Below, piece by piece: positions 36,839-56,232 of a stretch of 64,000 nucleotides of DNA (the stretch's first letter is position 1; every line of letters begins with the position of its first letter). Made by a program: the position numbers and the translations under genes. The notes under the pieces were generated by a model. That model had not been told where the DNA came from, did not search any database, and saw nothing but the letters and a program-made list of their open reading frames with translations. The DNA is taken from positions 10,496 through 74,495 of the forward strand of contig JBJEXC010000002.1 in assembly GCA_051885355.1 (NCBI GenBank). Reading direction: 5' to 3'. The stretch comes from Alphaproteobacteria bacterium. Lineage in GTDB: Bacteria; Pseudomonadota; Alphaproteobacteria; Rs-D84; CACZYB01.

Positions 36839-36946
36839 ATAATTGTTAATAATATATGAGTGTTTATATCACAAAAAAAAATAAAATCCATAAAAAAATT
36901 AAAATTTTGAAAAAAGTATGTTATAATGTTTTGCTAGGAGATAGAG

Positions 36947-37420
36947 ATGAAAATATTTTTGTGTTTATTTATGCTTTTTAGTTTTAATGCCTTTGCACAG
37001 GAAAGCCGGTTTTCGGGAAAAGAGTTACCTAGGTTTTCCGCATTAAGGAGTAACAGTGTTAATGCGAGAGTTGGTCCAAATGTTAAATATCCATTGAAAT
37101 ATGTATATGTGAAAAAATTTCTGCCTGTGGTAGTGGTAAATGAATATTATGGTTGGTATCAGATAAGGGATATTACCGGTGATTTGTCTTGGGTGTATAG
37201 GGATAATTTTACATCAAAGGATTATGCTATGGTAAAAAGCAATAATGTAGCCTTGTATAAAAAAGCAAAACTTACTTCAAAGATTTTAGCAAAGATTGAT
37301 AAGGGTATAATATTCCTTGTTGATAAATGTGAAGGAAAGTTTTGTAAAGTAAAAACAAATTATAATGAGAAAAAATTTGAAGGTTATATTTTAAAAAGTG
37401 AGTTATATGGTGTAAATTGA
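36947..37420 (+). CDS. secreted SH3b-domain protein
   Basis: Signal peptide plus a bacterial SH3-like region (…ARVGPNVKYPLKYVY…GWYQIRD…). Confidence 0.5.
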   Translation: MKIFLCLFMLFSFNAFAQESRFSGKELPRFSALRSNSVNARVGPNVKYPLKYVYVKKFLPVVVVNEYYGWYQIRDITGDLSWVYRDNFTSKDYAMVKSNNVALYKKAKLTSKILAKIDKGIIFLVDKCEGKFCKVKTNYNEKKFEGYILKSELYGVN

Positions 37421-37483: not shown

Positions 37484-39910
37484 ATGTTAAAATTATTTGC
37501 TGAAAAATTTGGTATGGGGGGGGGTAAAAACCCTGTAAAATCAAATAGTTACAAAAACTTTGCAATCTGTCTTTGTTTAATATTTTTTATATCTCTAACT
37601 ATATTTGCTTTGTCTGGTTCTGTGAATGCGGCAAGAAATGTTAGAGGTAACAGAAATGGTGGTGTTAAAAAAACAAGTGGGGCAAAGAAAGCAGGTAATG
37701 TTAATAAATCTAATAGTAGTTCAAATAAATCTATACCTGTAAATGCTAATAGGAAGGCTAGAGCGGCTGTTACTAATAAAAGGTCTGCGACTTCAGGTAA
37801 TGCAAAAAGGGCTGGCGTTTCTGGAAATGTTAGAAAGGCTAGAGTGGTTTCTGCTAGAAAGACTGTTAATAATAGGGCGTTAAGAGGAAAAATAAAAGCC
37901 GAAGAGGAAGCAAGTTTGGAAGAGACAGAAACTTTATCCTCAGAAGTAGTAAATAAGATGTCTGAACATGATAGAAAATTTAAAAAATTAGCTGAGTTGA
38001 AAGGTTTGGCAAACGACTGTCCTGTTGAAAAGGCTCTTGGTAGAAAAATTGATGAAGATGGTGATGAATTTTTCTATACAGGAAAAGAACCTTTTAATGG
38101 AGAAAATTTTTGTGATGAAAGACTTATATTATCTAATCAAATTGCTGATTTATATAAATGGAAAGAAAGTGACAAAGAAAAATATCCTAGGGGTAGTTTG
38201 GATGATAGTGATGAAATTTTTTATTTTAAATGTAAGGAAGGTTATGTTGCTAAAAATAACAGTGATGGTATAAGGACTTGTGTATCAGTTTGTCCTTTGA
38301 ATGTTGCTTTGGAAAAAAGTGCAAGTTATGAAGATAAATATATTTCTCCAACAAATGGTTTGATTTGTTCTGTTCCAGCAAATTCAAAAGCAAGACTTGT
38401 CAAAGATGGTGAAAATACAAGAAGTGATTTGGATGATGAAAATGCTTATATAGTAGAATGTAATGCAAATAAATATTCTGCTGTGTTAGATGGTTCTGAT
38501 TCGGAAGTGCATTATCAATGTTTGACTTGTCCAAGTGGGTATGTGTCCTCTGCTGGTGCAAAATCTGTTGCTGAATGTAAGGAAGAATGTAAAGGGGATA
38601 AGATTAAACTTGATGATGGAAGTTGTGTTGCTTGTGATGCGAATGCTTCTGTATCGGGTAATTCCTGTATCTGTAAAGATGGTTATTATGGTAAGGGATA
38701 TGGAACTGATGGATGTGTGACTTGTCCTTCTGGATATGTATGTTCTGGTGGTGAAAAGAAATCCAAATATGTAAGTGAACAGGCGGAAGAAACATCATCC
38801 AATGAACAACAATCTTGTCCAGAGGGTTCAAAACCTTCCTCTGATGGCACAACTTGTGTTTGTGATGATAGTAATTATACTTTTGATTCAAAATCCAATA
38901 GTTGTGTGGAAAAAGTTTGTGGTTCAAATGAAGTTAAAATGTCAGATGGAACTTGTAAAGCAATATCTAGTTTGGTTGCATCTGAATTTAACAGAGTTGC
39001 CACAGGAAAATCTGGTAATTCCAATTGTCCAACTGGTGATTTGGAGGCTGGTGTCTACTTAGTTACACTTAAAGGTGGTAATGGTGGAAACAGCGGTAGT
39101 AGTGGAAAAAATAAGGCTGGTCAAACAGAGAAAGATGTTTCCGGTGGAAAGGGTGCAAAATTGCAATATGTATTTAAGTTGAGTAAAAATGCAACTTTTG
39201 AAATTTGTGCCGGTGAAAATGGTAAATTGCCTGCTGATACAGATTCTCCAAATGAAGGAGGCGGTGGCGGTGGTGGATCATGGCTTAACATTAATTCACC
39301 TGAATTTTCTGGCGATGTCTACTTTGTTGCCGGTGGTGGTGGCGGTGCATCCGCAGACTATGCTGGTCAAGACGGCGGTGGCGGCGGTGGCGGCGGCGGT
39401 ATTGGTGCCGGTGGTGCTGCTGGTGAAGGTAAAGGTTATAGTTATGGTGGTTACGGTGGTATGAGTGGAAAATACCCTGGTGGAGTATACAAGCAATATA
39501 ATGATAATAATAAAAGTGGTGTAACAAAACTTTACGGTTACATACCTGATATTGCGAAGGGTTTAAATGACAGTAATCCGCTTTTGATGGGTGATTCTGG
39601 TAGAAGCGGTGGTGGTGCCGGTGGTGGAAATGGTGGTGACGGTGGTGACGGTCAAGAATGGTTTGGTAACGCTAATTGTGCAAAGGGTGCTGTTGCAAAT
39701 ATAGATACTATAAACATTATTGACTTTGACGGTAAAGTTACAAAGCAAAGCCAACAATACGGTGGTAAAGGTGGTGTTGCTTGTCAAGCCTCTCACCATA
39801 GAGCCGGATATGATGGTGAAAGTTCACATATTTCGAATATAAACCTTTCGAATTTATGTGGTGGAAGCAATAAGGCTGATGCCTGTGCTGAACTTTACAA
39901 GTTAAAATAA
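37484..39910 (+). CDS. large secreted/anchored protein: basic low-complexity region, Cys-rich ephrin-receptor/TNFR-like repeats, C-terminal polyglycine-rich (ALK/LTK GlyR-like) domain
   Basis: 808 aa. TM/signal segment at aa 26-48, then a K/R/N-rich stretch. More than 40 Cys in CxxCPSGY-type repeats, for example TCVTCPSGYVCSGG. The C-terminus has G6-G10 runs spaced by short beta-like strands (YVFKLSKNATFEICAGENGK / EGGGGGGGSW / VYFVAGGGGGAS / GGGGGGGGGIGAGG). Confidence 0.6.
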   Translation: MLKLFAEKFGMGGGKNPVKSNSYKNFAICLCLIFFISLTIFALSGSVNAARNVRGNRNGGVKKTSGAKKAGNVNKSNSSSNKSIPVNANRKARAAVTNKRSATSGNAKRAGVSGNVRKARVVSARKTVNNRALRGKIKAEEEASLEETETLSSEVVNKMSEHDRKFKKLAELKGLANDCPVEKALGRKIDEDGDEFFYTGKEPFNGENFCDERLILSNQIADLYKWKESDKEKYPRGSLDDSDEIFYFKCKEGYVAKNNSDGIRTCVSVCPLNVALEKSASYEDKYISPTNGLICSVPANSKARLVKDGENTRSDLDDENAYIVECNANKYSAVLDGSDSEVHYQCLTCPSGYVSSAGAKSVAECKEECKGDKIKLDDGSCVACDANASVSGNSCICKDGYYGKGYGTDGCVTCPSGYVCSGGEKKSKYVSEQAEETSSNEQQSCPEGSKPSSDGTTCVCDDSNYTFDSKSNSCVEKVCGSNEVKMSDGTCKAISSLVASEFNRVATGKSGNSNCPTGDLEAGVYLVTLKGGNGGNSGSSGKNKAGQTEKDVSGGKGAKLQYVFKLSKNATFEICAGENGKLPADTDSPNEGGGGGGGSWLNINSPEFSGDVYFVAGGGGGASADYAGQDGGGGGGGGGIGAGGAAGEGKGYSYGGYGGMSGKYPGGVYKQYNDNNKSGVTKLYGYIPDIAKGLNDSNPLLMGDSGRSGGGAGGGNGGDGGDGQEWFGNANCAKGAVANIDTINIIDFDGKVTKQSQQYGGKGGVACQASHHRAGYDGESSHISNINLSNLCGGSNKADACAELYKLK
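37516..37524 (+). repeat. G9 homopolymeric tract in the 5' coding region
   Basis: atGGGGGGGGGt encodes MGGGK; nine consecutive G in an ~30% GC genome. Confidence 0.8.
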
Positions 39911-39934
39911 TAAAAAATGATAGATTTTTTAAAG

Positions 39935-39960
39935 TCGCCCTTTTGTGGGGCGATTTTTTT
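39935..39960. terminator. bidirectional rho-independent terminator
   Basis: tcgccc-ttttgtg-gggcga hairpin followed by T7; sits between the convergent Gly-rich gene and yraN. Confidence 0.6.
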
Positions 39961-54752: not shown

Positions 54753-55043
54753 ATGAACAAAAAATTTTATATATTTCTGTGTGTATTTTTAACAAATTTT
54801 CTATCAATAGATGTATTTGCAAATAACTTGGATAATTTGCTTTTGCAATATTGTGTGCCAAGAGAGGGTAGTTGCATAAATAAAGCAACATACTCTAATG
54901 GTAAATGTGTCTGTTCTGGAAAATCTTTGTATATAGATAGGGAATGTTATGCCCCTAAATGTCCGTCAGGAACTTATATATATTACAGGAATGATACGGA
55001 TTCTTGTGGTGCAGGCAATTCTAGGACAAAGATGAAAAATTAA
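54753..55043 (+). CDS. small secreted Cys-rich protein, truncated paralog of the Cys/Gly-rich family
   Basis: Signal peptide MNKKFYIFLCVFLTNFLSIDVFA, then 10 Cys including a CPSGTY motif shared with the 55237 and 37484 proteins. It stops after 96 aa. Confidence 0.5.
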   Translation: MNKKFYIFLCVFLTNFLSIDVFANNLDNLLLQYCVPREGSCINKATYSNGKCVCSGKSLYIDRECYAPKCPSGTYIYYRNDTDSCGAGNSRTKMKN

Positions 55044-55236: not shown

Positions 55237-56232
55237 ATGAACAATAGAAAATATATTATATCGGCAATAACTTTGTTGAGTTTTGCTGGAATTGCACATT
55301 CTGCGATTTATCAGTGTAGGACTTGTCAAGAGGGAACTTATAGTGATGGAACAAGCACAAGTTGTACGGCGTGTCCGTCTGGGGCTGTGTGTCCAGAGGG
55401 AACTGGGGCACCAATTTATTTATCCAAATATAAAGATAAAATATTTTCAGCATGTGGAGAAATAGGTAAAGATTTTGTTAAGAATGGGACTATTTCGTGG
55501 AAAAAATATTATTCATCAGACTTTATTATTGATATGCGTGATAGGCAAAAAGTAAAAATAAATTCTGATGGAAATATAATTAAAAAGGGAGCAAGTGGTT
55601 ATAATTCCGCACGAGCATATCATGAAGTTAATTGTTATGACCTTGATGGGTATTATGAAAGTGATGGATATAAATCTGTTGTAGATGAGATTCATGGTCT
55701 GTGTGGTGATATTGTACAAATATCGAAATTTACCACAGGAAGTGGTAGTTTTACTTTGTCCCCTGGAATATATTATATTAACATTGGTGGCGCCGGTGGT
55801 GGTGGTGGTGGCGGACATTATTGTCCTGAATTTATGCATATTATACATAAAGATGGTGGTAATGGAGGAAGTGGAGAATACATAAGCAAGGTTATTTATA
55901 TATTAAAATCGACTTCATTTTCTTATAATGTTGGTACAGGAGGAAATGGAGGAAGTGGTAGAAGATGTAGCTGTTCTGATGCGGGAGAGCGCGGTGGAAA
56001 TTCATATGTATCTAATACTCTTCTTTCTTTATCAATTACAGCAAGAGGTGGTGCCGGTGGTGGACGAGCATGTGAAAGTGGAAGCACAGATGCTACAGAT
56101 TTAGGATTAGGAGGAAAAGGTGGTCTCGGTGGAAAAGGTAGTAAAACGGGTCACTATGATAGAGGAAGTAATGGAGAAAATGGTTACATAGAAATTAAAC
56201 AATTTATATATAGTCAATGGTGTGCCAAATAA
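55237..56232 (+). CDS. secreted Cys-rich / polyglycine-rich (ALK/LTK GlyR-like) protein, paralog of the 37484 gene product
   Basis: Signal peptide (…GIAHS/AI), CRTCQEGTY…CTACPSGAVCPEGT Cys-repeat, then IYYINIGGAGGGGGGGHY…GGNGGSG…GGNGGSG…GGAGGG…GGKGGLGGKG glycine runs. Confidence 0.6.
   Translation: MNNRKYIISAITLLSFAGIAHSAIYQCRTCQEGTYSDGTSTSCTACPSGAVCPEGTGAPIYLSKYKDKIFSACGEIGKDFVKNGTISWKKYYSSDFIIDMRDRQKVKINSDGNIIKKGASGYNSARAYHEVNCYDLDGYYESDGYKSVVDEIHGLCGDIVQISKFTTGSGSFTLSPGIYYINIGGAGGGGGGGHYCPEFMHIIHKDGGNGGSGEYISKVIYILKSTSFSYNVGTGGNGGSGRRCSCSDAGERGGNSYVSNTLLSLSITARGGAGGGRACESGSTDATDLGLGGKGGLGGKGSKTGHYDRGSNGENGYIEIKQFIYSQWCAK

Follow-up and report, generated by a model that had tools for sequence, protein, structure and literature searches.

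The 808-aa protein encoded in a 64,000-nucleotide stretch of an alphaproteobacterial contig (JBJEXC010000002.1, positions 10,496 to 74,495; hereafter the window) joins a cysteine-rich region to a glycine-rich C-terminus reminiscent of the receptor tyrosine kinases ALK and LTK. This raises the question of what the protein is related to and what role it may play. Polyglycine-II lattice domains are rare, and work on ALK/LTK signalling, on how phages recognise their hosts and on protein design has brought them to notice; ALK possesses fourteen hexagonally packed polyglycine-II helices. The C-terminal tip of the 808-aa protein appears to be an unusual, enlarged form of a domain already known from prokaryotes and phages rather than a copied eukaryotic gene. 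On balance, we lean towards the protein being a modular adhesin, disulfide-rich and exported by Sec, whose TNF-like/polyglycine binding tip can be swapped.

Gene and genomic context

Rechecking of the ORF list confirmed the 808-aa ORF as it had been reported in a preliminary description of this DNA, and all peptide strings quoted there were found in its product, which is 100% identical to MGN0929138.1 (NCBI annotation, MAG: hypothetical protein ACI4N3_00675 [Alphaproteobacteria bacterium]). This is a real gene, with a Shine-Dalgarno sequence (AAGGA) 8 nt 5' of its ATG and a terminator (Table 1). A gene for a predicted secreted SH3 (SH3b) protein precedes it on the same strand with a gap of 63 nt and is kept at the syntenic locus L001. 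The two are possible operon partners, and the best promoter-like site near the SH3b gene is located at 36899-36927. The gene 3' of the 808-aa ORF lies on the opposite strand. Neighbours of the two genes of the window that encode Gly-rich tips are tig, dnaN, grpE, folD, a PBP, rpsB, tsf, infB and nusA.

Table 1. Features of the two loci, with positions in the window
Feature	Position	Strand	Basis
Secreted SH3 (SH3b) protein (predicted), 157 aa, upstream of the 808-aa gene	36947..37420	+	Pfam SH3_4 69.3 bits, SH3_3 35 bits
808-aa ORF with its stop codon, modular secreted protein (predicted)	37484..39910	+	ORF call, Shine-Dalgarno sequence, NCBI identity
aa 1-49, N-terminal export signal (predicted)	37484..37630	+	Read from sequence
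aa 50-137, low-complexity and basic (K/R/A/N/S), repeats of KRAG/KRSAT type	37631..37894	+	Composition
aa 179-491, Cys-rich module with 24 Cys, conserved and family-defining	38018..38956	+	Relatives, Cys invariance, dN/dS
aa 326-365, sole Ephrin_rec_like/GCC2_GCC3-like unit (C..N.YS...C..CPSGY.S..G...C)	38459..38578	+	Sub-threshold PF07699/NCD3G matches
aa 515-808, enlarged TNF-like/polyglycine (TG-like, Gly_rich_2-class) domain, presumed binding tip	39026..39907	+	Structure prediction, family comparison
aa 515-630, confidently modelled tip core	39026..39373	+	pLDDT, strand alignment to PF21722 members
aa 631-760, Gly-rich expansion (~130 aa) absent from compact Gly_rich_2	39374..39763	+	Insertion relative to 21 family domains
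Intrinsic-terminator-like hairpin and T-run	39931..39957	+	21 nt past the 808-aa ORF stop; 11-bp stem with 5 GC pairs, then TTTTTTT
Small secreted Cys-rich ORF (predicted), 96 aa, upstream of the 331-aa gene	54753..55043	+	ORF list
331-aa secreted protein (predicted): signal peptide aa 1-22, TNFR/Ephrin_rec_like-type Cys unit aa 18-57, helical middle, compact Gly_rich_2	55237..56232	+	
aa 158-324 (331-aa protein), Gly_rich_2 domain of compact TNF-like/polyglycine type	55708..56208	+	pLDDT 85-98; Pfam PF21722 at aa 169-314

Signal peptide and basic region

The four-part layout first proposed for the protein (hydrophobic segment, basic low-complexity region, Cys region and Gly-rich C-terminus) was seen in full on reading the sequence. 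The predicted export signal possesses the n-region motif MGGGKxPVKSxxY and a 20-aa hydrophobic core (aa 26-45) followed by VNA/A, the likely signal-peptidase site; motif and core are conserved in the relatives P0003, P0027, P0029 and P0041. Residues 50-170 contain 17 K, 16 A, 15 N, 14 S and 13 R with zero Cys, and in most members of the family analogous repeats (KRAAT/RSGGT) come directly after the signal peptide. A strongly basic stretch right behind a hydrophobic segment is unusual in exported regions and counts against export of the 808-aa protein.

Cysteine-rich module

The module is rare, with 41 representatives at E ≤ 1e-3 among 1.84 billion proteins, and a profile made from three of its sequences matched one locus when searched against GTDB genomes. 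It is 64-70% identical in P0002 and P0003, its Cys positions are invariant across the relatives compared, and comparison with the syntenic ortholog gave a dN/dS of 0.47 at a dS of 0.60. Searches of the module against Pfam and PDB sequences, including a module profile against PDB, gave nothing significant.

More than 40 Cys in CxxCPSGY / CxCxDGYYG units had been attributed to this region. Counting gave 32 for the protein in full, 25 of them within aa 170-520, and although both motifs are present, they do not build a regular array, since the first occurs only twice and the second once. The proposed eukaryotic type of the repeats may hold for a single unit, which resembles PF07699, but not for aa 179-325, the larger part of the module, for which no known family, eukaryotic or other, gave a match. 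The likeness to Ephrin_rec_like, GCC2_GCC3 and TNFR repeats consists of the pattern C..CP.G.(Y/F).....C, found in the 808-aa (aa 326-365) and 331-aa (aa 18-57) proteins; unlike PF07699 and TNFR, the first ~150 residues of the module match no family or solved structure. Scores against PF07699 (gathering cutoff 23.1 bits) were 10.9 bits for the 808-aa excerpt and 17.0 bits for the 331-aa protein, both below the cutoff. At the corresponding position, relatives P0035 and P0029 reach 21-22 bits; P0032 reaches 26.5 bits in an extra repeat, with matches at E ≤ 1e-3 in 12 of the 41 Cys-module relatives.

Glycine-rich tip: sequence searches

Residues 520-808 include 76 Gly, and the runs are G7 at 592, G5 at 617 and G9 at 631. 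Gly runs therefore exist as described, but only these three have at least four Gly, and the original wording of G6-G10 runs was generous. Approximately 11-14 Gly-rich motifs were counted by eye in aa 531-780, and those of the tip core are located in between the strands GVYLVTL, LQYVFKL, TFEICA, SWLNI and VYFVA.

The 808-aa protein, whole and in parts, gave no significant match in Pfam (including PF12810 and PF21722), NCBIfam or PHROGs. The match to PF12810 that had been expected did not appear even at E ≤ 10, whether for the 331-aa protein, the 808-aa protein or the isolated C-terminus of the latter. At the PF21722 cutoff (24.3 bits) neither the whole protein nor the isolated C-terminus was matched; the 331-aa protein scored 39.9 bits and the syntenic ortholog P0003 34 bits. 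PHROG tail-fibre families matched neither the 808-aa protein nor P0027, and phrog_863, 6202 and 356 were matched by the 331-aa protein and P0003. Chance-level matches of the 808-aa protein were to cEGF, PH_Rhabdo and a T9SS tail (E-value 0.22 for the last). With phmmer and hmmsearch, no ALK/LTK entry was retrieved at E ≤ 10 from the complete set of PDB chains, which includes many of them; the queries were the full 808-aa protein, the 331-aa protein, the family profile, a profile of the 808-aa protein and P0027, and the core segment. Pfam showed none of the MAM/LDLa, EGF-like, transmembrane or kinase parts of a receptor tyrosine kinase in the 808-aa protein.

MAFFT aligned all core strands of the 808-aa protein with those of 9-21 PF21722 family domains, and a family HMM made without this protein gave it only 3.4 bits after bias correction versus at least 28 bits for other members. 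With this HMM a shuffled C-terminus alone scored -42 ± 5 and the full-length protein -21, values that are not like for like. A profile with the tip included retrieves almost exclusively PF21722 proteins, and in PDB it retrieved the Pam3 fibre as well as Bxb1 gp33 (E 6e-9). The enlarged tip is conserved in the 751-aa relative P0027 (52% identity, E 1e-56), where the G7/G5/G9 runs are in register and the ~130-aa expansion is also kept. No enlarged-tip relatives were found in 2.9 million viral contigs or in JGI metagenomes.

Glycine-rich tip: predicted fold and kinship to ALK/LTK

As the tip of the 808-aa protein fails every sequence-profile test, its assignment rests on an AF2 model. This model has a mean pLDDT of 53, being confident for ~110 of 314 residues and below 50 for more than half; model residues 21-130, the tip core, have a pLDDT of 65-89, and the aa 631-760 expansion is below 50. 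DSSP on the predicted models assigned the Gly segments as coil. The alignment on which the AF2 model was built consists of PF21722 domains, and the model is possibly biased to the PF21722 fold for this reason. Read with that proviso, the model supports a TNF-like sandwich with an inserted glycine-rich lattice (TG fold), as in ALK/LTK, and a predicted fold common to the solved Gly_rich_2 members Pam3 gp24 and Bxb1 gp33. Both solved members are tips with which phages bind receptors, and the match to them is no poorer than that to ALK. The right family for the Gly-rich tips of the window is most probably the prokaryote/phage Gly_rich_2 (PF21722) superfamily. The suggested GlyR or ALK/LTK likeness thus stands at the level of fold class, by predicted structure, but not as membership of the ALK family, to which no profile or sequence match was found.

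The 808-aa protein shares with the ALK/LTK TG domain (PF12810) its predicted fold, a tip of ALK-like size (~295 aa) and an adjoining Cys-rich module. It differs in that this module is N-terminal to the tip (the order is reversed), in being bacterial and in having an N-terminal signal only, and the half in which most additional glycine helices would be expected was modelled without confidence. The fibre gp24 of cyanophage Pam3 (PDB 7YPX/7YFW) and the tail wing brush gp33 of mycobacteriophage Bxb1 (PDB 9D93) belong to phages, whereas the 808-aa gene is cellular and located in a core-genome slot; its product has a predicted Sec signal and a putative disulfide-rich stalk, and no trimerising helical/fibre shaft. 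Compared with compact Gly_rich_2 domains, the tip is ~130 aa larger, and neither Pfam nor PHROG models recognise it. The gp38 adhesin of Salmonella phage S16 and T-even phages (PDB 6F45) is similar in using a glycine-rich PPII/PGII lattice as a conserved scaffold for variable receptor-binding loops.

It has been described that Pam3 gp24 recognises its receptor through a TNF-like and glycine-rich domain similar to ALK and to S16 gp38 (PMC9608196), and the polyglycine domain of S16/T-even gp38 has been grouped with Pam3, Bxb1 and ALK (PMC9608196; PMC13243192). To call a bacterial GlyR-like domain uncharacterised is only partly true, because the resemblance between the phage domain of Pam3 gp24 and ALK was already published (PMC9608196). 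A literature search retrieved no paper mentioning 'PF21722'.

Second gene and exchange of tips

The 331-aa gene, 17 kb off, is a second, simpler member of the 808-aa design. It had been put forward as a second paralog; the ORF exists, but it is not a close paralog, as BLASTP aligns one Cys unit only (E 6e-4) and the Gly domains are ~23% identical. PHROG tail-fibre and minor-tail families match it at aa 145-317. The 96-aa ORF upstream is 64% identical to a 113-aa gene in the same position at locus L004.

In a sister genome, P0003 occupies the same tig-SH3-X-UPF0102-grpE-folD slot as the 808-aa protein with a compact PF21722 tip (34 bits), and P0002, P0032, P0028 and P0041 are relatives with other, unrelated C-termini. 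In some proteins Gly_rich_2 (P0022) or Cys repeats are located behind type IV pilin N-methyl leaders, a display context that fits the adhesin reading. By sequence comparison, the tip is the exchangeable part of the 808-aa family at a fixed chromosomal slot. A dN/dS of ~0.8 for the tip, from a 31%-identity alignment, may reflect domain replacement rather than diversifying selection. Swapping of C-terminal tips is typical of recognition modules and untypical of scaffolds.

Putative function of the 808-aa protein

In the adhesin that we favour, the N-terminal signal would direct export, the Cys module would be oxidised in the periplasm to form a rigid stalk, and the basic repeat region might, more speculatively, tether or space the protein on the anionic envelope. 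The C-terminal ~295 residues are predicted to fold as a TNF-like beta-sandwich on which a polyglycine lattice is stacked and, by analogy with phage fibres, may bind a specific ligand on the host or another cell via variable loops at the lattice end. The protein could also stay periplasmic, because no outer-membrane translocation system is evident. Neither the surface exposure nor the intracellular symbiont put forward in the preliminary description gained support from the analysis.

A periplasmic location would suit a structural envelope or periplasmic scaffold or spacer, perhaps acting with the adjacent SH3b protein, rather than an adhesin. That SH3b protein would bind peptidoglycan, and its gene adjoins the 808-aa gene in two genomes, possibly co-transcribed, in a core-genome location; the basic region could bind the envelope, and the 808-aa protein showed no outer-membrane export signal beyond the chance-level T9SS match at an E-value of 0.22. 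We consider a scaffold rather unlikely, as the solved tip relatives with a described role are all ligand- or receptor-facing, C-terminal tips are swapped between orthologs and selection is relaxed (dN/dS 0.4-0.5).

If the protein is a recognition module, its target may be another bacterium rather than an animal host, because the proteins most closely related to it are those with which phages bind receptors on bacterial surfaces. A part in co-aggregation, in epibiosis or in targeting of a bacteriocin-like kind would agree with closest folds that are phage tips binding bacterial envelopes and with a tip diversity resembling that of host-range modules. Such an interbacterial role is nevertheless distinctly unlikely in our view, with no toxin domain, immunity gene or tailocin genes nearby and a downstream gene on the opposite strand. 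A polymorphic toxin was rejected on similar grounds (no toxin or immunity gene, and the orientation of the downstream gene).

The matches of the 331-aa protein and P0003 to PHROG tail-fibre/minor-tail families, and those of the profile to phage fibres in PDB, could also point to a phage tail fibre that was domesticated or left as a remnant, either as debris of a prophage or as the fibre of a tailocin. This origin is very improbable: no phage genes surround either locus, both slots are conserved amid housekeeping genes in sister genomes, and no enlarged-tip relatives occur in the viral contigs. Both proteins have predicted Sec signal peptides and Cys-rich modules, and we know of no phage fibres with these features. 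A prophage remnant was rejected given the housekeeping-gene context at both loci.

Still less probable is a reading in which the Gly-rich C-terminus has low complexity and no structure, or belongs to a decaying gene, and its structural matches are artefacts of Gly-rich MSAs. The low mean pLDDT, with more than half of the tip model below 50, and the collapse of HMM scores after bias correction would fit this; a pseudogene was rejected, as the ORF is intact, Shine-Dalgarno and terminator signals are present and relatives are conserved. Least probable of all is a eukaryote-derived mimic acquired from an animal ALK/LTK gene and binding ALKAL-like host cytokines, which the similar fold, ALK-like size and adjoining Cys-rich module would suit, and a eukaryotic origin of the tip is not supported.

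Implications

The locus presents a predicted polyglycine architecture in chromosomal bacterial proteins with predicted Sec export, fused to a putative disulfide-rich stalk, and one form of the tip is invisible to current Pfam and PHROG models. Composition-bias filters hide such Gly-rich domains from sequence annotation, and structure prediction brings them back. A bolder and rather doubtful proposal is that these are cellular, non-phage receptor-binding proteins of putatively gut alphaproteobacteria whose TNF-like/polyglycine tip recognises ligands on a host or a neighbouring cell, that the 808-aa tip is an independent ALK-sized elaboration of Gly_rich_2, and that tip and Cys stalk together form the closest architectural counterpart among prokaryotes to the ligand-binding TG+EGF unit of ALK/LTK. 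If true, this would support a prokaryote/phage origin of the metazoan ALK/LTK receptor module. Among prokaryotes, the 808-aa family offers a tractable relative in which the origin of the ligand-binding fold of ALK/LTK can be studied and, if the adhesin role holds, it would represent a class of recognition proteins new to bacterial surfaces, from putatively gut Alphaproteobacteria that are poorly known.

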